DNA of 64,000 nt, from NCBI GenBank assembly GCA_963730335.1, contig CAVSRK010000002.1, positions 1,730 through 65,729 on the forward strand, in the 5' to 3' direction. Numbering within the stretch: position 1 is the stretch's first letter; every line of letters begins with the position of its first letter. The DNA comes from an uncultured Alphaproteobacteria bacterium. GTDB lineage: Bacteria > Pseudomonadota > Alphaproteobacteria > Rhizobiales > Methyloligellaceae. The translations under genes were made by a program, and so were the position numbers. Below, piece by piece: positions 2,116 through 64,000 of this stretch. Under the pieces are notes generated by a model. That model ran no database searches. It saw nothing but the letters and a program-made list of their open reading frames with translations, and was not told where the DNA came from.

Positions 2116-4719
<2,604 letters not shown>

Positions 4720-4829: not shown

Positions 4830-5017
4830 GGGATCGAGATGTGGAGGGCCGTGTCACAGTTGCCGGCCTTCGCGGGCACAAAAATGTCCGGGAGGCCCCT
4901 CGGCTCACCGGGTCGGGAGTGGTCTCGTTGGGCTGATGGGACTAGGGCGGATCTGATCCGTTCTGCTCGCACCCGGCAGCGCGGCCTTGCCGCCGTGCCG
5001 CGCCTGGCCGGCGTCCG

Positions 5018-5555: not shown

Positions 5556-6140
5556 TCAGCTCACCGGGTCGGTAGAGGTCTCGTCGGTGGCTTGCGCTTC
5601 GGGCTGATCGGCGCCGTTCTGCTCGCGAGAGGCCTCGTGGCCATTGCCGCCATGGCGGTTCCGGTCGCGTCCGCCGGGATGGTGCTCGCGATTGCCGGCA
5701 TGACGCTCGCGGTCCTGACCCCCGCCCCCTTGGCGAAGGTGGTCGCCGCCGCCTTCGGCGCGGATCTCGCCACCGCCGCCTTCGTTGACATCGTCGTCGA
5801 TGCCTTCGTCGTCAGAGTTCCAGCGCGGGTTGCGATATGAGCCGCCGCCGTTAGGGCCTTCGCCCGCTTGAGAATTGGGCTGCCCGCTGAACTGGGTCTG
5901 CGCCGCCATGATGATGCGGTTATAATGCTCGGCGTGCTGGAGATAGCTCTCCGCCGAGACCATGTCGCCGGAGGCGAGCGAGTCGCGCGCGAGCGACATA
6001 TATTTCTCGGCGATATGCGCCGCGGTCCCGCGGATCTTCACGTCGGGGCCATTCGATTCGTAGTTCCGCGCTAACGGATTTTGGGGCTTACGGCCACTAC
6101 CGCGGCCGCGGCCCCTGCGATTCTGCTGTCCTTGCCTCAT
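5556..6140 (-). CDS. DUF4167 domain protein with disordered C-terminus
   Basis: MRQGQQNRRGRGRG...RNYESNGPDVKIRGTAAHIAEKYMSLARDS...YLQHAEHYNRI. Confidence 0.9.
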   Translation of the reverse strand: MRQGQQNRRGRGRGSGRKPQNPLARNYESNGPDVKIRGTAAHIAEKYMSLARDSLASGDMVSAESYLQHAEHYNRIIMAAQTQFSGQPNSQAGEGPNGGGSYRNPRWNSDDEGIDDDVNEGGGGEIRAEGGGDHLRQGGGGQDRERHAGNREHHPGGRDRNRHGGNGHEASREQNGADQPEAQATDETSTDPVS

Positions 6141-6562
6141 TTCCTTCTGTTCTCTTATAGGCGGGTCTGTCCCCGCGTCCTGCTCCCTGCTCACTCCCTG
6201 CCACGGCGGGTCTTAAGCCCCTACGCGCTCAGCGTCCGGAACGCCGGATCGGCCGTGCAGTCATCCTAGCCTGCGCTGTTCGTGCCTTGTTATGAGTCGA
6301 AACTCCGGCGCTAAGCGTCCTAGAGTCCTTCAGCTAGCGCCAGCCAACCTCAATCTGTTGGGCGGTTGAGCGTCTCCTGAACGTCCCGAGAGGCAGAGGC
6401 CTTTCAATCGAGGTTCACGAAAATCCGCTCTAGTTGCCGTTGCTACCGGCGGCGCCTCCCAAGCGCCAAATGGCCGATAGCCGTTCGCTGGCGACGAACC
6501 TAACCTGAACATAGGGGTTCTCCAAGCCTTTTTTTGGCCTTGCGACCCCGAGTCCACCCCGG

Positions 6563-7435
6563 TCACAAGCCGCAAGCAACCACGCGCGGCCGCCCGGCCA
6601 GGTCGCGGCTGATGGCTTGGGACGGGTCGAGTTTGAGCCCGGCCGCGCGAAAAATATCCGACACTTGGGCCGCTTGGCCGGCGCCGATTTCGACCAGCAG
6701 CCGGCCCCCCTCGGCCAGGACCGCCGGCGCGCCCGCGGCAATGCGGCGATAAGCGTCAAGCCCATCGGGGCCGCCATCAAGGGCGAGCATCGGGTCGTAA
6801 GCGGCGACCTCTGGGGCCAGACCGGAGATCTCGCCTGAGGCCAAATAAGGCGGGTTGGACAGAACCAAATCGAACTTGCCAGCGATGCCGTCGAGCCAAT
6901 CGGCGGCCATAAAGGCGGCGCGCGAGCCCACACCGAGGCGGACGGCATTGGCGGCGGCAAGCGCCAAAGCGCTCGGGCTGAGATCAGTGCCGAGCCCTTG
7001 CGCGCGCGGCAGCTCGGCCAGCAGGGTGACGAGGATGCAGCCGGTGCCGGTACCGAGATCGAGCAGGCTGAGCGTCCGGTCGCGCCAGCCGCGCCGCTCG
7101 ACTACAGCGAGCGCCGCCTCGATCAGGGTCTCGGTATCGGGGCGCGGGTCGAGCGCCGGTGGGGCGATGGTGAAGCCACGACCATAGAACTCGCGGGTGC
7201 CGGTGATCCTCGCCACCGGCTCGCGCTTGAGCCGCCGGTCGATGGCCGTGCCGAAGCGCGCCAACGTCGCGGGCTGAACAGGACCGCCGGCGCCGGCGAC
7301 ATAGGCCTCGTGGCTCAGGCCGGCGGCGTGGCAGAGCAGCAGCCGCGCGTCGAGCTCGGGCGTGGTGATCCCCGCTTCACGCAAAACGGCGGCCGCGCCG
7401 ACGAAGGCCTGGTTCAAGGTCACGGGCTCAGGCAT
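6563..7435 (-). CDS. prmC: Release factor glutamine methyltransferase PrmC/HemK
   Basis: [17 protein letters not shown] and SNPPY motifs; overlaps the prfA stop. Confidence 0.96.
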
Positions 7436-26735: not shown

Positions 26736-28515
26736 ATGACGCTCGACCAAGGACTCGCCTTCGCCATCGTCATCGGCATGATGGCGATGTTCGTATGGGG
26801 GCGTTTCCGCTACGACCTGGTCGCGGTGCTCGCTTTGCTGGCGGCGATCGCCGCCGGCATCGTCCCGGCCAATAAGGCCTTTACTGGCTTCAGCGACGAC
26901 ATCGTCATCATCGTGGCCAGCGCGCTGGTGGTCAGCGCCGCCGTGGCTCGCTCGGGCGTGGTCGAGCGCGCGGTCCGCATGCTGGGGCCCTATCTCACCA
27001 CCCTCACCAGACAGATCGTCGCTCTGGTCGGCTCGGTGACCTTGCTCTCGGGCTTCGTCAAGAATATCGGGGCGTTGGCGATGCTGATGCCGATCGCCTT
27101 CCAGCTGGCGCGGCGGACCGGAACCTCGCCGTCATCTTTGCTGATGCCGATGTCGTTCGGCGCGCTGCTGGGCGGCATCGTCACGCTGGTCGGCACCTCG
27201 CCCAACATCATCGTGTCGCGGGTGCGCGAGCAAATCCTGGGCGAGCCGTTCCACATGTTCGACTTCACCCCGGTCGGGGCTGGCATCGCCATCGTCGGCG
27301 TTATGTTCCTCACCTTCGGCTGGCGGTTGTTGCCGCAGGACCGCAAAGGCGCGGTCTCGATGGACGCCGCCTTCAATCTCGAAGGCTACACCACCGAGGT
27401 GACCGTGCCCGAGGACTCGCCCGCCGCCGGCATTACGGTGAAAGCGCTCGAAGACCTCGGCGAAGATGAGGTCGAGGTCATCACCCTGCTGAGAGGCCGC
27501 AGCCGCCGGTATGAGCCGGCTGGGAACGTGGTGATCAAGCCCGGCGACATTCTGATTCTGCAAGGCGAGCCGGCGGCGCTCGAACGCATCGTCGCTCTGG
27601 AGAAGCTGCAGCTTACTCGCGAGGGCAAAAGCCACGAGATCGATATGCCGAGGGACGAGATCGGTGTCACCGAGGCGGTCATCACGCCAGATTCTCCCCT
27701 GGTCGGCGGCTCGGTCGGTCAGCTCAAATTGTTCGACCGCTACGCGGTCAATCTGCTCGCGGTGAGCCGCCGGGGCCGGCGCATCACGCATCGCTTACGC
27801 TCGGCAAAGCTCAGGGCCGGCGATGTGGTGGTGCTCAGGGGCAATCTTGCCGCAATGCCGGAGACGCTGGGCGAGCTGCATTGCCTGCCGCTGGCTGAGC
27901 GCGACCTCAATATCGGCAGAAAAGGGAGTCTTCATCCCGGTCGGCGTGCTGGCGGCCGCCATGGCGCTGGTCGCCTTCAACCTGGTGCCGGTGGCAATCG
28001 CCTTTTTCGGCGCCGCCGTGGTGCTGCTGTTCGCCGGCTCGCTATCCTTGCGCGACGCCTATGACGCGGTCGAATGGCCGATCCTGGTCATGCTCGGCGC
28101 GTTGATCCCGGTGAGCGAGGCGTTGCGCACCACCGGCGGCACCGAGATGATCGCCTCCTGGCTGTCGAGCACGGCGGCCCCGCTGCCGGCCATGGGGGCG
28201 CTCGCGCTGCTGCTGGCCGCGGCCATGGCGGTGACGCCGTTCCTCAACAATGCCGCCACCGTGCTGGTCATGGCGCCGATCGCGGCGAGCTTCGCCGCAC
28301 GGCTCGGCTACAACCCCGATCCGTTTCTGATGGCGGTCGCCATCGGCGCGGCGTGCGATTTCCTTACGCCGATCGGGCATCAGTGCAACACGCTGGTGAT
28401 GGGGCCCGGCGGCTACCGGTTCGGCGATTATTGGCGGCTCGGCCTGCCGCTGTCGCTGATCGTGCTCGGCGTGGGCGTGCCGCTGATTGCCTTCTTCTGG
28501 CCGGTCTCGCCTTAA
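26736..28515 (+). pseudogene. SLC13/CitMHS-type permease with TrkA-C domains, frameshifted
   Basis: N-half (GTSPNII motif, two TrkA-C domains) and C-half (NNAAT, TPIGHQCN) are in different frames. Removing one A from AGAAAAGGG at 27918-27926 restores GRKGVFIPVG. Confidence 0.85.
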
Positions 28516-29345
28516 GGTGTCTCGGCGACTTCAGGCGGGCAGCGCTCCTCGACCAGACCATTCGCCGTCGCGACGGTGCCGGCCTCGAACACGTAATGGC
28601 CTTTGCACACGCTCACCGCGGGCGGCACGTGGCTCGGCTCGAACAGATCGTAGCCTTGCTTCAGCTCGGACCAGAAGCTCTCCCATTTCGAGCCCTGCCG
28701 CAGCTTGAGGTTGCGATCCGTCATGCGGAACGGGAAGGCATGGACCGCGAACCGCGGCTGACCTTTGTCGAGCGCCGCCGTGACCAGACGCCAGATCTCG
28801 TCGACCACGGGATGAGTGACGGCGTAACAGCCCACCGAGGCGCAGCCGCCATGCACCATGAGGAAAGACCCGGTGCGCCCGTGCGCTTGGTCGTACAGAT
28901 TGGGGAAGCCGAGATTGAACGAACGATGCATGACACTGTTCGGATTAAGCCACTCGGCGTCGACCGTGTAGAAGCCCTCCGGCGCCTGCCGGTCGCCTTC
29001 GCGCAGCTTCGGTCCAAGGCGACCCGACCACAGGCAGATCGGATAGGTGGCGAAGCGGACAAAGCGCCCGTCCTTCTCGACCCACAGCTCAAGCTCCGAC
29101 TCGAGCTTGAAGATGCGGATATAGACCGGCACGCCCATGCCGACGCCGACGGCCGCAAGCCGGTCGTCGATGCGATCGAGGTCGGGCGTGCCGGGCAATT
29201 TCTCGCCGGCGCGGAAGCGGGCCTGATAGTCTTTGCGCGTCAAGTTGACGGTCACGCGATCGACGAACTCGCGCCCCTGCGGCGTCAGCAGGTAGTAGCC
29301 GGCGCCGAGCAGCGCGATCACGGCAAGGACGGTAAGTGCTCGCAT
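28512..29345 (-). CDS. Murein L,D-transpeptidase, YafK family
   Basis: IRIFKLESELELW, GDRQAPEGFY, MVHGGCASVGCYA. Confidence 0.92.
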   Translation of the reverse strand: MRALTVLAVIALLGAGYYLLTPQGREFVDRVTVNLTRKDYQARFRAGEKLPGTPDLDRIDDRLAAVGVGMGVPVYIRIFKLESELELWVEKDGRFVRFATYPICLWSGRLGPKLREGDRQAPEGFYTVDAEWLNPNSVMHRSFNLGFPNLYDQAHGRTGSFLMVHGGCASVGCYAVTHPVVDEIWRLVTAALDKGQPRFAVHAFPFRMTDRNLKLRQGSKWESFWSELKQGYDLFEPSHVPPAVSVCKGHYVFEAGTVATANGLVEERCPPEVAETP

Positions 29346-29409: not shown

Positions 29410-30348
29410 CTAGCGGTCGGGCGTGGCCGGCCCGAGCGTGAAGGCGCTGTAGGGCGGCCTGGACGGTCCGAACCTCAGGCCGAGCACACTGCCGAGCGGC
29501 TTGGTCAGGGCGGCCTGGCTCTTGGACGGTTTGGGCTTGGCCGCGGCTTCCTGCATGACGGGCGCACGCGGGGTCGGCAGCCGCTGAAAGGCGGGGCAAG
29601 CGCCGGTGGGGCTAGGCCTGGCGTCGCCGTTGAATGCGACGTTGATCAAATAGCGCTTCTCGCACACGGCGATCTTGGGCGGCAGGCGGCTGATGTCGAA
29701 ATAGTCGTAGCCCTCCTTCAGGTTCCTCCAGAAGTCGTACCACTTGTCGTCCTTATGGGCGGCCATGTTGGCGGCCGTCATGCGGAACGGAAAGGCTTGG
29801 ATCTGGAACGACGGCTGTCCGCCTTGCAGCGCCTCGCGGGCGAGGGTGAAGATCTCCTCGACCACGGCATCGGTCATGGCGTAGCAGCCGGACGAGGTGC
29901 AATCGCCATGCACCATGATGTTCTGACCGGTGCGGCCATAGGCGCGATCGTAAGCGTTGGGGAAGCCCACATCGAAAGACAGGTGGTACTTGCTTCTCGG
30001 GTTCATCTGATCGAGCGAAACGAGATAGAACCCTTCCGGCGCTTGCCGGTCGCCCTGCTGGATCTTCGGCCCGAGTCCGCCCGAATAGCTGCAAATCGGG
30101 TAGGTCTTGAAATGATAGAAGCGGCCGTCGTCCTTGGCCTTCCAAATCTCAAGCTCGGATTCGGCCTTGAAGATGCGGATCAGCACCGGCGACTGCTCGC
30201 TCATGCCCTTCTCGGCGAGCAGCGCGCGGGTCTGCGGGGACAGCGGCTTGAGATAGGTCGGCGTCAACTGGCCGCAGCCGCCCAGCGCGGCGGCCAAAGC
30301 CACCACGCACGCCGCTGCTACGGCCGTGACAAAACTTGAGCGAAGCAT
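29410..30348 (-). CDS. Murein L,D-transpeptidase, YafK family, lipoprotein
   Basis: Lipobox LGGC, IRIFKAESELEIW, GDRQAPEGFY, MVHGDCTSSGCYA. Confidence 0.93.
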   Translation of the reverse strand: MLRSSFVTAVAAACVVALAAALGGCGQLTPTYLKPLSPQTRALLAEKGMSEQSPVLIRIFKAESELEIWKAKDDGRFYHFKTYPICSYSGGLGPKIQQGDRQAPEGFYLVSLDQMNPRSKYHLSFDVGFPNAYDRAYGRTGQNIMVHGDCTSSGCYAMTDAVVEEIFTLAREALQGGQPSFQIQAFPFRMTAANMAAHKDDKWYDFWRNLKEGYDYFDISRLPPKIAVCEKRYLINVAFNGDARPSPTGACPAFQRLPTPRAPVMQEAAAKPKPSKSQAALTKPLGSVLGLRFGPSRPPYSAFTLGPATPDR

Positions 30349-61202: not shown

Positions 61203-61781
61203 TCAGCGGTTCTTGCCCGGCACCCAGGTCACGTCGAGCTTGCCCTTGTCGTTGGCAGAACGGGCCGCGACGAACAGAAAATCCGAGAGCCGGTTGATAT
61301 AGCGAAGAGCGGCTTCGCCGACCGTCTCGCCCTTCCGTGCGGCGAGCGCCACCATGAGACGCTCGGCCCGGCGCGAGATGGTCCGGGCCAGGTGCAGATA
61401 ACTCGCGGCCGGCGAGCCGCCCGGCAGCACGAACGAGCGGAGCGGCTGAAGCTCATGGTTGAGCGCATCGATCTCGCCTTCCAGCCGCGCCACCTGGGCG
61501 TCGGTCACTTGCAAACGCCCGCGCGCGTCCTTGGTTTCGTCGGGGAAGCAGAGATCGGCGCCGAGATCGAACAAATCGTTCTGGATGCGGGCGAGCATGG
61601 CGTCGAGCACGGGCAGGCGGTCTCTGGTGTGCAGGCGCGCCAGGCCGATGGCGGCGTTAGCCTCGTCGAGCGTGCCATAAGCCTCGACCCGGAGATCGTA
61701 TTTGGCGACGCGCCGGCCCGAGCCAAGCGCAGTGGTGCCGTCGTCGCCGGTGCGCGTGTAAATCTTATTGAGAACTACCAT
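61203..61781 (-). CDS. Cob(I)alamin adenosyltransferase (PduO/MMAB type)
   Basis: KIYTRTGDDG, QNDLFDLGA, FVLPGG, RRAER, YINRLSDFLF. Confidence 0.95.
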   Translation of the reverse strand: MVVLNKIYTRTGDDGTTALGSGRRVAKYDLRVEAYGTLDEANAAIGLARLHTRDRLPVLDAMLARIQNDLFDLGADLCFPDETKDARGRLQVTDAQVARLEGEIDALNHELQPLRSFVLPGGSPAASYLHLARTISRRAERLMVALAARKGETVGEAALRYINRLSDFLFVAARSANDKGKLDVTWVPGKNR

Positions 61782-61872
61782 TGTGCCCGCCTTGGGAAGC
61801 CAGAGTTCCGCGGGTCGTGCCGACCTGGTTACAGCTTAGCGCAGCTTGGCGCCGAAGGCGATCAAGCCTTCG

Positions 61873-62070
61873 TTAGGGGCCTTTGCCGGCCAGGTAGATT
61901 GCGGCCATCACTAGGCAAAGGGCGATGAACTGCAACACCACGCGCCAGCGCATCAGGAGCTGGCTGGTATTGGGATTGCCGCCGCGCAGCATGTTCCACA
62001 GCCCGAGCAGCAGCACGGTGGCGACCGCGGCCAGAGCGAACGGAATGGCGTAGTTCCTGAGTATTTCCAT
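61873..62070 (-). CDS. Twin-TM small protein (HIG1-like)
   Basis: LLLGLWNMLRGGNPNTSQLLMRWRVVLQF; usual neighbour of the PduO-type gene. Confidence 0.88.
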   Translation of the reverse strand: MEILRNYAIPFALAAVATVLLLGLWNMLRGGNPNTSQLLMRWRVVLQFIALCLVMAAIYLAGKGP

Positions 62071-62110
62071 GATTGCGACCCGTCGGGCCTCGGCCGGTTT
62101 GACCCGCACT

Positions 62111-62770
62111 CTAGTTGCGGGCGGCACCGGCGTCGAGCGCGCTCATTGGGCGAAGGCTGCTAGGGCTGGGCGGCGGCGGCCGTGGCCAGGGCGCATGCGC
62201 GAAACTATCCTGCGAAAGCCGCCAGATGGCGAAGCTGCCGAGCGCGAGTGCAACGAGGAGCGCGGCGGAGATGCCAGCGAGCGCAACGGGCGAGCGCTCG
62301 ATCCCTTTGCCTTTCAGGATGCTGTCGGTCTCGCGGATCAGACGATCGACGTGGTGGTCGAAATCCTGGCCGGTATCGACGCGGACCGCGTTGCGGTAGG
62401 AAAACTGCTTGAGGCTGTCCGGCAGCTGCGCGGGGGACGGAATTTCGCCGCGGCCGACCAGGACCGGAATGACGGGGATGCCTTTCTTGAGCGCCGTCTC
62501 GACCTCGATGCGGACCTGATCGTTGTCCTCGTCGATCCGGGCGCCTCCCTCAGGGGTCGAGCCGCGCCAATTCGGCCCCACCACCGCGAGCAGGACATCG
62601 CTCTGCTGCAACACGTCTTGAATGTGGGAGCTGAAATCGACGCCGACGGGGACGTTGTCGACGTCTCTGAACACCGACTTCCGGCCGTAATGGCGGATCA
62701 GCCGGTCGAAAATGCGCCCGGTGATGGCCTCGGAATCGGAGCGCCGATAAGAAATCGAGAGTCTCGGCAT
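62111..62770 (-). CDS. TIR-domain protein with one TM helix
   Basis: ISYRRSDS, VFRDVD, VRIEVETAL (Glu retained), IPVIPVLV, then TM ALAGISAALLVALALGSFAIW and a short tail. Confidence 0.9.
   Translation of the reverse strand: MPRLSISYRRSDSEAITGRIFDRLIRHYGRKSVFRDVDNVPVGVDFSSHIQDVLQQSDVLLAVVGPNWRGSTPEGGARIDEDNDQVRIEVETALKKGIPVIPVLVGRGEIPSPAQLPDSLKQFSYRNAVRVDTGQDFDHHVDRLIRETDSILKGKGIERSPVALAGISAALLVALALGSFAIWRLSQDSFAHAPWPRPPPPSPSSLRPMSALDAGAARN
62113..62140. repeat. Imperfect direct repeat copy (matches the SDR gene 3' end at 62872-62899)
   Basis: AGTTGCGGGCGGCAccGGCGTCGAGCgC versus AGTTGCGGGCGGCAatGGCGTCGAGCaC, 25/28 identical, copies 759 bp apart. Confidence 0.85.
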
Positions 62771-62816
62771 CAGGTCGCCACGGGGAAGGTAGCCTCCTTA
62801 TCGTGCCGCAAGCGCA

Positions 62817-62844
62817 ATTCTAGATGAGACGGGGCGAAGCGCAA
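62817..62844 (-). promoter_or_regulatory. sigma70-type promoter of the TIR gene
   Basis: Minus strand TTGCGC-N16-TAGAAT, about 47 bp upstream of ATG 62770. Confidence 0.5.
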
Positions 62845-62869
62845 CGTATGACGGAGGGCATTTTCAGGC

Positions 62870-63697
62870 TCAGTTGCGGGCGGCAATGGCGTCGAGCACC
62901 GAGGTGGGCAGGAAGCGGCGGAATAGCGCCGCCGCGTAGGTTGGCACGGTCACGTAATAGCGGCGTTTTGGGCTCCGGCTTTCCAGCGCGTGGGCGAGCT
63001 TAAGCGCGACCGCCTCAGGGCCGAGCTTGAAGGTCTGATCGCCGCCCTCCTCGAGCCGGGCGATGCGGGTGCGATAGATTTCGCTATGATGCGAGGCGTC
63101 GAGATCGATATGGCGGCGATAAGCTTCCAGTGCGTGCTCAAGGAAGCGAGAGGCGATCGGACCCGGCTCGATCAGCACGATCTTGATGCGGGTCGCAGAG
63201 AGCTCGAGGCGGAGCGCGTCGGCAAGCGCTTCCACGGCGAATTTGCTGGCGCAATAGGCACCCCGATAGGGAGCCGAGACGAGGCCAAGCACGGAGGAAC
63301 AGAACACGATACGTCCCTCCCCTTGCTTTCGCATGGCGGGGATGACGCGGGCAGTGAGATCGTGCCAGCCGAAAAAGCCCACCTCGAACTGAGCGCGCAG
63401 CACTTCGCGCTTCAAGTCTTCGACCGCGCCGGGCTGGCCATAAGCACCGTTGTTGAACAGCGCGGTGAGCTTACCTCCCGTCGCTTCGAGCACCTGCGCG
63501 ACAGCCGTCACGATGGACTCGGGCTCGGCGTAATCGAGATAAAGGCTCTCGAGGCCCTCCTCGTCTTCGAGCCGCGCAAGATCTTCAGCCTTGCGCGCCG
63601 TAGCGAACACGCGCCAGCCGCGCGATTTCATTTCGCGCGCGGACGCGAGCCCGATGCCTGACGAGCAGCCGGTGATGAGAACGCTCCGCTCGCTCAT
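62870..63697 (-). CDS. Short-chain dehydrogenase/reductase (YbbO-like)
   Basis: TGCSSGIG, NNGAYG, YCASK (YxxxK). Confidence 0.94.
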   Translation of the reverse strand: MSERSVLITGCSSGIGLASAREMKSRGWRVFATARKAEDLARLEDEEGLESLYLDYAEPESIVTAVAQVLEATGGKLTALFNNGAYGQPGAVEDLKREVLRAQFEVGFFGWHDLTARVIPAMRKQGEGRIVFCSSVLGLVSAPYRGAYCASKFAVEALADALRLELSATRIKIVLIEPGPIASRFLEHALEAYRRHIDLDASHHSEIYRTRIARLEEGGDQTFKLGPEAVALKLAHALESRSPKRRYYVTVPTYAAALFRRFLPTSVLDAIAARN

Positions 63698-64000
63698 CAG
63701 CTATTGAGGAACCAAATCGCGAAATTGAGCCCGGTGGCGAAGCAAACCCAGAGCGCGAGCGGGATTAGCAACAGGGAGGCGCTACGGCTCACGCGGTCGA
63801 ACAACACGATAGTAATGACGATGACGATCAGGAAGGCCATGATCACGGCCAGGCCGAGCGCGGGACTGTGCAGCCAGAAGAAGGCGACCGACCACAAGAC
63901 GCCCACGGCGAGCTGGATGAAGAACCAGATCATCGCCAGTCTTTGATCTGACTCCTTGCCGGGCGAGTGCCAGACAAGCCACGCGGCGACCGCGCTCAGC
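63697..64000 (-). CDS. tspO: TspO/MBR family protein (5' end outside window)
   Basis: The frame is open to the window edge: LSAVAAWLVW...FFIQLAVGVLWSVAFF...LLIPLALWVCFATGLN. Confidence 0.85.
   Translation of the reverse strand, partial: LSAVAAWLVWHSPGKESDQRLAMIWFFIQLAVGVLWSVAFFWLHSPALGLAVIMAFLIVIVITIVLFDRVSRSASLLLIPLALWVCFATGLNFAIWFLNS

Follow-up and report, generated by a model that had tools for sequence, protein, structure and literature searches.

A stretch of 64 kb of DNA from an uncultured Alphaproteobacteria bacterium (contig CAVSRK010000002.1; the whole stretch is called here the window) carries a gene for a TIR-domain protein between a short-chain dehydrogenase (SDR) gene and a HIG1-domain gene, and the 3' end of the SDR gene is present on both sides of it. 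As shown by comparison with related genomes, this arrangement appears to go back to an ancestral insertion at the SDR stop codon, accompanied by a duplication of ~120 nucleotides (nt) of the SDR end. The explanation that we consider probable for the locus as a whole is a duplicative insertion of a single gene, followed by co-divergence with the flanking genes, by decay and, in the window, by a deletion. According to it, a unit of ~1.1 kb consisting of one gene and ~100 nt of its own upstream region would have been inserted exactly at the SDR stop codon in an ancestor among the soil Hyphomicrobiales, and along with the insertion the final ~120 nt of the SDR gene would have been duplicated in direct orientation. 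The locus is a gene-end duplication around inserted DNA, a known geometry, rather than a mobile element of a new kind. The inserted unit is referred to as the cassette, and the features of the window that bear on the insertion are the following:

62870-63697, minus strand: SDR gene of 275 aa, an open reading frame (ORF) matching PF00106 (E=2.4e-39), with orthologues in 80 genome loci.
62872-62897, minus strand: upstream 26-nt repeat copy, the functional SDR 3' end including the present stop, followed by cassette DNA and not by the native TAG-AGTGC junction.
62771-62869, minus strand: cassette 5' region, its own upstream/regulatory block, containing TCTAGAATTG at 62815-62824.
62111-62770, minus strand: truncated TIR-TM (transmembrane) ORF of 219 aa (TIR_2, E=8e-12).
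62111-62159, minus strand: what is left of the old SDR 3' end after its displacement, comprising the downstream repeat copy at 62113-62138 and TAG at 62111-62113.
61873-62070, minus strand: HIG1-domain gene (PF04588, E=3.5e-13), the native downstream neighbour of the SDR gene, which it directly follows in empty-site relatives.

The SDR ORF ends with ...VLDAIAARN-TGA and the TIR ORF with ...ALDAGAARN-TAG, and at these ends the repeat finder returned a single 26-nt direct repeat (62113-62138 and 62872-62897), identical at 24/26 positions, with a spacing of 759 and the same register to both stops; the identity is 25/30 when the first codon and both stop codons are counted. As a degenerate 26-mer pattern in which at most 3 mismatches were allowed, the repeat matched only these two sites in the 64 kb, with 0 expected (100 shuffles), and over the whole window 3 pairs with at least 24/26 identical positions within 1.5 kb were found versus 0 in each of 10 Markov-1 simulations. 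No GC break occurs across the cassette (the genome has ~64% GC), and between the repeat copies Pfam gives TIR_2 alone, with no integrase or transposase ORF. These results bear out two statements of an earlier reading of the window (the original prediction), namely that the SDR end recurs 759 bp away in the same register to the stops, its 25/28 identity being close enough to the 25/30 counted here, and that neither an integrase nor a transposase lies between the copies, as given by the ORF list and Pfam. The sigma70-like promoter that it had placed between the copies is unconfirmed, since a scan of 61700-63000 for sigma-70 promoters and terminators, which uses an E. coli-type consensus, called nothing.

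For the comparison, one genome per species was searched with the SDR protein and the six neighbouring genes were mapped by tblastn, and additional filled loci were obtained by looking up contigs and by scanning metagenomes (5 loci). Relatives in this Hyphomicrobiales group are labelled Methyloceanibacter or uncultured Alphaproteobacteria; comparison loci are labelled L001 etc. and homologous proteins P0001 etc. In most relatives (20+) the SDR gene is followed by HIG1 within ~50 nt. As the original prediction had anticipated for relatives without the TIR gene, empty sites have a single SDR end directly upstream of HIG1 (L001, L003-L014 and L037, and also L090). A cassette or a remnant of it lies between SDR and HIG1 in five lineages (L002; L082; L081/L084/L085/L087; L088; L095/L096), with a further filled locus, L083, listed with L082; L081, L084, L085 and L087 represent the window's own lineage with an intact or frameshifted cassette gene. 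In L002 the order is SDR, a TIR-TM-CHAP gene, a second SDR fragment (residues 237-275) and HIG1, and the two SDR-end copies (5706-5825 and 6938-7057) are identical at 108/120 positions, 83/85 in the first part and 25/35 in the last. The start of the duplicate, 10-12 nt past the cassette stop, is shared by L002 and L082; in L082 the duplicate is eroded by an internal deletion, and in L088, L095 and the window lineage it is reduced to its last 30-80 nt.

The junctions indicate which of the two copies is the old one. All empty-site SDR ends and all downstream copies have AAC-TAG (or TAA) followed by AGTGC/AGTCG..., while the upstream, functional SDR ends of filled loci have other stop contexts (TGA-G, TAA-T, TAG-G), ~14-25 nt before the conserved upstream block of the cassette. 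The empty-site tails of L001 and L090 match the downstream copy of L002 at 30-31/35 positions and its upstream copy at 25/35, and the differences between upstream and downstream or empty-site tails are mostly synonymous. Because its TAG and the following AGTGC match the empty-site SDR ends, the downstream copy is shown to be the displaced original SDR end with its native HIG1 junction, and the upstream copy keeps the SDR gene intact. The comparison of junctions and of empty and filled sites therefore supports the earlier proposal that the cassette entered at the SDR 3' end and displaced the old end. As regards the related suggestion, that other strains might carry different cargo here, the SDR|HIG1 junction of a distant relative, Rhodobium orientis (L027, 5830-7820), is occupied by three unrelated ORFs on the reverse strand (126, 195 and 210 aa), but with no SDR-end duplication. 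This other cargo without duplication gives no evidence that the SDR end serves as a recurrent attB site in the loci compared.

Neighbour-joining (NJ) trees, bootstrapped and built on gap-free columns of the flanking genes (2.3-3.4 kb), were used to place the cassette in time. The tree on 3,415 columns joined {L088, window} with (L082, (L090, (L001, L002))), with inner nodes at 100%, and the empty L001 and L090 are nested within the filled clade with 100% support; when L095 was added, this filled locus was placed outside that clade and close to the empty L003/L005, and the empty L006 lay between. Nucleotide identities of the cassette were 0.80 for L084-L002, 0.82 for L084-L082, 0.87 for L002-L082 and 0.74-0.76 for L095 versus the others, and those of the flanks were 0.84, 0.86, 0.88 and 0.81-0.83 for the same pairs, so that the divergence of the cassette is consistently ~1.1-1.4-fold that of the flanks. 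Since cassette identities track flank identities, the insertion appears to be old and vertically inherited, and the comparison shows that a single old insertion, vertical inheritance and lineage-specific decay would be the simplest reading. The original prediction had seen here a footprint of delivery; the insertion at the SDR end stands, but it is ancient and vertically inherited, with no recent delivery. The cassette was cleanly lost in at least L001 and L090, an outcome that would be expected from recombination between the 120-nt repeats, and an empty allele taken over from a relative would leave the identical picture.

The in-frame fusion of the TIR ORF with the SDR remnant in the window is secondary, and comes from a later deletion and not from the insertion. 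Two further features are involved:

62187-62188, minus strand: junction of a 400-nt deletion, at which L084 1291-1690 is missing, the NlpC-P60-like domain is lost and the frame is shifted by +1.
62160-62162, minus strand: former TAG stop of the full-length cassette gene, now read through (compare L084 ...GTCCAGCCCTAG, AVQP*).

The closest homologues of the window protein, P0002 (98% identical) and P0003-P0012, have ~335 aa (336 aa in the full-length P0002), and the match spans only window residues 1-195; past ...SFAHAPW, the full-length homologues run into a TIGR02594 domain. The window and the metagenome contig L084 are identical at 708/713 and 127/128 positions on the two sides of a single 400-nt gap. 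In the window lineage, this deletion, at 3 nt of microhomology, removed the periplasmic TIGR02594/NlpC-P60-like domain. As 400 = 3x133+1, the frame is shifted, and the ORF passes the old TAG and runs to the next stop; in this +1 frame it enters the SDR remnant by chance in the SDR's own frame, which gives the ...ALDAGAARN* tail. Residues 1-195 of the ORF are native and the last 24 are out-of-frame or readthrough sequence. The ...PPPSPSSLRPMSALDAVAARN tail of the window protein is also found at the end of P0021, a copy with a frameshift in a different assembly; it therefore arises when the 3' end of the gene and the DNA behind it are read in an alternative frame. Among 120 TIR homologues, LDAxAARN ends were found only in the deletion allele (P0001) and in P0021, which comes from the same locus, and the other 118/120 lack such an end, so that the tail does not belong to TIR homologues at other places, a possibility against which the earlier reading could be checked; intact homologues end with ...YRLP...QP. 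The loss of 400 nt, the shift of frame and the readthrough are in this way shown, and the statement of the original prediction that the TIR gene is fused to the duplicate stands as far as the displaced end supplies its tail and stop, but the fusion was caused by the 400-nt deletion and not by the insertion.

Contigs from 4 runs of soil metagenomes, each belonging to a different study, show this joint as well ('skips 400', 3 nt of microhomology), and therefore the deletion allele is real and widespread and an assembly artefact is unlikely; in the protein collection, the cluster of the full-length form has 69 member sequences and that of the deletion allele 12. Metatranscriptome contigs overlap parts of the TIR ORF and of HIG1 at a depth of 2-3 and do not span the deletion joint. 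With only TIR and TM left, the protein of the window allele may be inactive or deregulated.

The two SDR-end copies seem to have continued to interact after the insertion, and their fate differs among lineages: the repeats were kept and homogenised in L002 and eroded in L082, L088, L095 and the window lineage. In L002 the same substitutions, specific to L002 when compared with its sister L001, are found in both copies, and therefore these copies recombine. In the window, L084 and L085, the SDR tail (ATTGCCGCCCGCAAC) has three differences from that of L081, L082 and L088 (ATCGCCGCCAGGAA-), all of them towards the downstream copy (window 62875-62889, minus strand, versus L081 3703-3729), which suggests a short gene-conversion patch from the pseudogene remnant to the live SDR gene; the 24/26 quality of the repeat in the window would be due to this patch. 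The cassette gene itself is frameshifted in L081, L095 and possibly L002, all in long-read assemblies, so that some of these frameshifts may be errors. In L002 (5918-5945) an extra T soon after the cassette ATG (GAGACTTCTCG versus GAGACTCTCG) breaks the frame, either as a real frameshift or as a long-read error. In L088 two large deletions leave ~340 nt of the cassette (2997-3340): the 5' part of the TIR gene and its promoter are gone, inside the gene, the stretch between TIR residue ~106 and CHAP residue ~292 is deleted, and the remnant of the SDR end is still there. Another deletion allele was observed in L097 (492-835; P0156 and P0157), where the N-terminal part of TspO (...ITIVL) is fused in frame to the last ~38 cassette codons; the C-terminus of TspO, the whole SDR gene and most of the TIR gene are lost, and the SDR-end remnant and HIG1 are kept. 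A TspO-cassette allele of this type is present in two separate contigs.

A reason for the persistence of the displaced SDR end may be found in its last nucleotides, where the following feature was recognised:

62109-62137, minus strand: candidate HIG1 promoter in the old SDR end, CTCGAC (62132-62137), a spacer of 17 nt and CTAGAG (62109-62114).

The sigma-70 consensus of Alphaproteobacteria is CTTGAC-N17-CTATAT, which CTCGAC-N17-CTAGAG resembles. In a set of 7 sequences made up of downstream copies and empty-site ends, each hexamer is invariant at 6/6 positions and the spacer at 5/17, and in the 5 upstream copies, which are only coding, the second hexamer, which spans the SDR stop codon, is invariant at 1/6. 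The functional SDR gene of L088 has synonymous changes in the first hexamer (CTTGAT), and its non-coding remnant keeps CTCGAC. We infer that the last ~30 nt of the SDR gene, including the stop, hold the HIG1 promoter, and the displaced SDR end probably persists because of the promoter inside it. The cassette also has a conserved region of its own, a block ~50-100 nt upstream of the TIR ATG (GTTGCG...TCTAGAATTG...), found at the same site (L002, L082) and at an unrelated one (L089).

If the SDR end holds the HIG1 promoter, then no simple insertion would spare both the SDR C-terminus and the expression of HIG1, and only a duplicative insertion would survive selection. We give about an even chance to the proposal that the original insertion was recombinase-independent, that is illegitimate and duplicative, and that its duplicative outcome was fixed because the SDR end carries the promoter. 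No element-encoded recombinase or excisionase was found between the repeats, where the TIR gene is the only real ORF, and the neighbours are housekeeping genes in all filled loci; terminal inverted repeats are absent from the cassette ends. The DNA that belongs neither to the gene, nor to its upstream block, nor to the repeats amounts to ~26 nt, of which ~14 nt separate the SDR stop from the upstream block and ~12 nt follow the cassette stop up to the start of the duplicate. The search of plasmids gave no full-length homologue and the scanned viral contigs contained no relative, so that no vehicle was identified there.

Several points weigh against this account. The molecular route of the insertion is not legible in the sequence, and a target duplication of 120 nt is unusual for illegitimate insertion in bacteria; moreover, the end of the upstream copy coincides exactly with the stop codon, as predicted for an element-borne replacement of a gene end of the e14/icd type. 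The HIG1 promoter is proposed from conservation alone, and the scan with the E. coli consensus does not call the site. As to descent, the deeper nodes around L003/L005/L095 are weak (42-50%) in NJ trees of 2.3-3.4 kb, the nested empty sites could reflect replacement by empty alleles or several gains, and several of the loci compared were assembled from error-prone long reads of metagenomes, with frameshifts in L081, L002 and L095. Finally, the metatranscriptome contigs do not distinguish the alleles and are too weak to call expression of the truncated one.

The rival closest to the original prediction is a site-specific integration of att type, by a small element that brought its own SDR 3' end as attP and whose integrase was lost later or acted in trans; recombination with the chromosomal SDR end would have completed the SDR gene with a tail from the element and displaced the end of the host. 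It would account for the direct repeats of the target-gene 3' end that flank the insert and leave the gene intact (26 nt in the window, 120 nt in L002), for an upstream copy that stops exactly at the stop codon with foreign DNA next to it, and for clean empty sites with one repeat copy, and the geometry and scale are like those of icd/e14 (153/165 identical positions versus 108/120 here). What the earlier reading described as an att-like site used by an integrase-less or since-deleted element fits the SDR-end repeats and the empty sites, but no recombinase was shown, and the ~26 nt of spare DNA argues against a larger lost element, which would have had to be trimmed almost perfectly, to ~14 + ~12 nt. 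The insert has no integrase, excisionase or other ORF, homologous genes elsewhere lack flanking repeats, and plasmids and the viral contigs scanned lack a full-length homologue. The mostly synonymous differences between the upstream and downstream tails do not need a foreign origin either, and we regard this type of integration as unlikely.

An equally doubtful origin is one by Campbell-type recombination or in two steps. In the first variant, a small circular or tandem intermediate [SDR end + cassette] would enter by a RecA-dependent single crossover in the SDR end; in the second, the SDR end (or the complete SDR gene) would first undergo a short tandem duplication and the cassette would then go into the redundant copy. 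A single crossover with a circle gives exactly the structure observed, with its abrupt start of the duplicate, and the recombining copies of L002 and the conversion patch of the window lineage fit recombination at this place, but the model needs an earlier donor arrangement or two events, and after the upstream stop there is no trace of a second SDR gene. Tandem SDR paralogues do exist in a distant relative (L029 163-1812, two full-length genes in a row before HIG1), but they are old (67% nt identity) and have no relation to this clade. Joints of empty sites or circles were not found in the metagenome contigs of the four runs, although contigs may drop rare forms, which would then be invisible. 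A depth-2 'skips 479' joint with 20-nt anchors in metagenome contigs was judged spurious, and the upstream gene of L089, considered as a donor SDR-cassette arrangement, was rejected, as it resembles a flavin adenine dinucleotide (FAD)-dependent oxidoreductase and not an SDR.

Less likely still is a reversible, recombinase-free cassette, which RecA would pop out as a 1.2-kb circle with one SDR end and which would re-enter relatives, as circle or linear DNA, by a Campbell-type crossover with their conserved SDR end; the clean empty sites among filled genomes would then be traces of traffic, and if this were true the cassette would be a route by which immune-type genes pass between related bacteria with no enzyme supplied by an element. 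That the repeat is due to chance similarity of GC-rich coding DNA, or to an error of assembly or a chimera, with the TIR ORF as simply a short native gene, is refuted to near certainty: in its favour are only the shortness of the window repeat (26 nt) and the ~64% GC of the genome, but 0 matches are expected in shuffles, a 120-nt version exists in L002, remnants lie at the same place in four other lineages, and the structure and the deletion joint recur in independent assemblies and in four metagenome studies.

Returning to the single duplicative insertion, the protein that it would have brought can be described from its homologues and from the part left in the window:

62339-62755, minus strand: TIR domain, residues 6-144 (Pfam PF13676 TIR_2, 46.2 bits versus a cut-off of 28).
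62204-62290, minus strand: predicted TM helix, ~residues 161-189, a single long helix in the AlphaFold model of a full-length homologue; hydrophobic PVALAGISAALLVALALGSFAIW.

Judging from domain matches, the ancestral cassette protein is composed of a SARM1-like TIR domain, a predicted TM helix and a TIGR02594/NlpC-P60-like domain, and ended at its own stop. The best solved match of the TIR domain is the SARM1 TIR, both by sequence (E=1e-3) and by fold (TM-score 0.81), and in the alignment E89 (RIEVETAL) falls on the catalytic Glu of SARM1 (HKEIVTAL). The full-length homologue scores 100.5 bits with TIGR02594 (cut-off 70.55), with weak CHAP and NlpC/P60 matches, and in its AlphaFold model (mean predicted local distance difference test, pLDDT, of 81) the C-terminal domain has pLDDT >90 and matches MepS/NlpC-P60 peptidases in fold. 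The canonical TIGR02594 motif is PWC[SA][AS]F, versus DWASAF or similar, with Ala for Cys, in all TIR-linked members seen; the His (GHVGF) does not vary. The DWASAF-type site lies at residues 237-241 of P0002, and the whole domain is deleted in the window allele. The TIR-linked TIGR02594 domain is therefore probably a pseudo-enzyme or a binding domain, and we infer a topology resembling that of Toll-like receptors, in which a non-catalytic outer domain would bind wall fragments and, across the TM helix, a cytoplasmic TIR would cleave NAD+ as an effector or signal generator. No ThsA or other Thoeris partner lies nearby, the neighbours being SDR and HIG1; the ThsB/ThcB4 models score 36-38 bits versus a cut-off of 220, and PADLOC gave only weak TIR-like/ThsB hits. 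No description of TIR-TIGR02594 fusions was found in the searchable literature.

Members of the TIR-TM-CHAP family are also found as single genes in other conserved surroundings: between TspO and SDR (L086/L090), between pepA and holC (L093), near flhA (L091) and beside a PAS-SpoIIE gene (L089). Flanking direct repeats are absent around the homologues in L086, L089, L090, L091 and L093, and the duplication of a gene end is therefore not a general property of this family. In two close relatives, L086 (2689-4415) and L090 (3428-5905), the gene between TspO and SDR is a divergent allele, and the SDR|HIG1 site is empty; as the allele is only 66% identical in nt to the main cassette, it is best taken as an independent acquisition in the same neighbourhood.

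As for the surroundings of the locus, the gene order on the minus strand of the window is TspO (cut by the window end), SDR, the TIR_2+TM ORF, HIG1, a PduO-type adenosyltransferase and a rhomboid protease. The TspO frame is open to the window edge (63697-64000, minus strand), the listed 78-aa ORF being the C-terminal half of a TspO of ~163 aa, and its stop overlaps the SDR start (TGATG). Another of the pairs of at least 24/26 belongs to tandem paralogous genes (28512-29345 and 29410-30348, minus strand) with a common ...AFPFRMT... motif; in the remaining pair (4903-4928 and 5559-5584), one copy lies between clpB (2116-4719) and an Arg/Gly-rich ORF (5556-6194) and the other at the 3' end of that ORF.

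Taken together, the locus would record the stepwise embedding of a lone immune-type gene between two housekeeping genes and then its decay, by a duplicative insertion that spared the SDR C-terminus and (probably) the HIG1 promoter, by gene conversion, by clean loss and by deletions that removed a domain or gutted the gene. It also holds a warning for annotation, since what looks like a "TIR-TM" protein of 219 aa is the truncated product of a fusion, and if the ancestral protein senses cell-wall fragments, it would be a candidate envelope-damage sensor.

Compared with known systems, the locus has none of the marks of insertion sequences, transposons and miniature inverted-repeat transposable elements, namely terminal inverted repeats, a target duplication of 2-15 nt and a transposase, and its duplication is of ~120 nt. 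With integron cassettes it shares a single-ORF insert of ~1 kb, but it has its own upstream block and neither an attC-like structure or imperfect palindrome in the 10-12 nt after the stop, nor an array, nor an integron integrase. The protein resembles the bacterial TIR NADases (Thoeris ThsB, AbTir) and SARM1 in its TIR_2 domain, SARM1 fold and aligned catalytic Glu; unlike Thoeris, it has no ThsA and sub-cut-off scores, and the ancestral TIR is joined by a TM helix to a periplasmic NlpC/P60-like domain. That domain passes TIGR02594, has a MepS-like fold and keeps the His, as in the TIGR02594/CHAP/NlpC-P60 amidases of phage lysins, type VI secretion system (T6SS) effectors and MepS, but its nucleophile Cys is Ala (DWASAF), and the window allele is without the domain. 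Illegitimate or homology-facilitated illegitimate insertion of single foreign genes has reportedly been observed, and the cassette is similar in being a lone gene with its own upstream region, without element signatures, from a family found as singletons in unrelated conserved contexts; in such insertions, however, the target is usually deleted or minimally duplicated, and a 120-nt duplication ending at the stop is atypical. The nearest likeness is to e14 and phage 21 in icd of E. coli, where the insert also starts within a protein gene or at its end, and the gene remains intact since its 3' end is present twice, with a displaced pseudogene copy on the far side. In E. coli K-12 the last 165 nt of icd are inside e14 and the 165-nt icdC pseudogene is at the far end, identical at 153/165 positions, so that 165 nt at 93% compare with 120 nt at 90% here. 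The element e14 has ~15 kb and carries intE/xisE, whereas here a single 1.1-kb gene is inserted, with no recombinase and no spare DNA, and the upstream copy is not demonstrably element-borne (it matches the empty-site tails at 25/35 positions, versus 30-31/35 for the downstream copy, with mostly synonymous differences). The locus would therefore represent a recombinase-free counterpart to the classic icd/e14 geometry, in which the insertion appears to be ancient and vertically inherited and the displaced end is seemingly kept for a host function, the HIG1 promoter.

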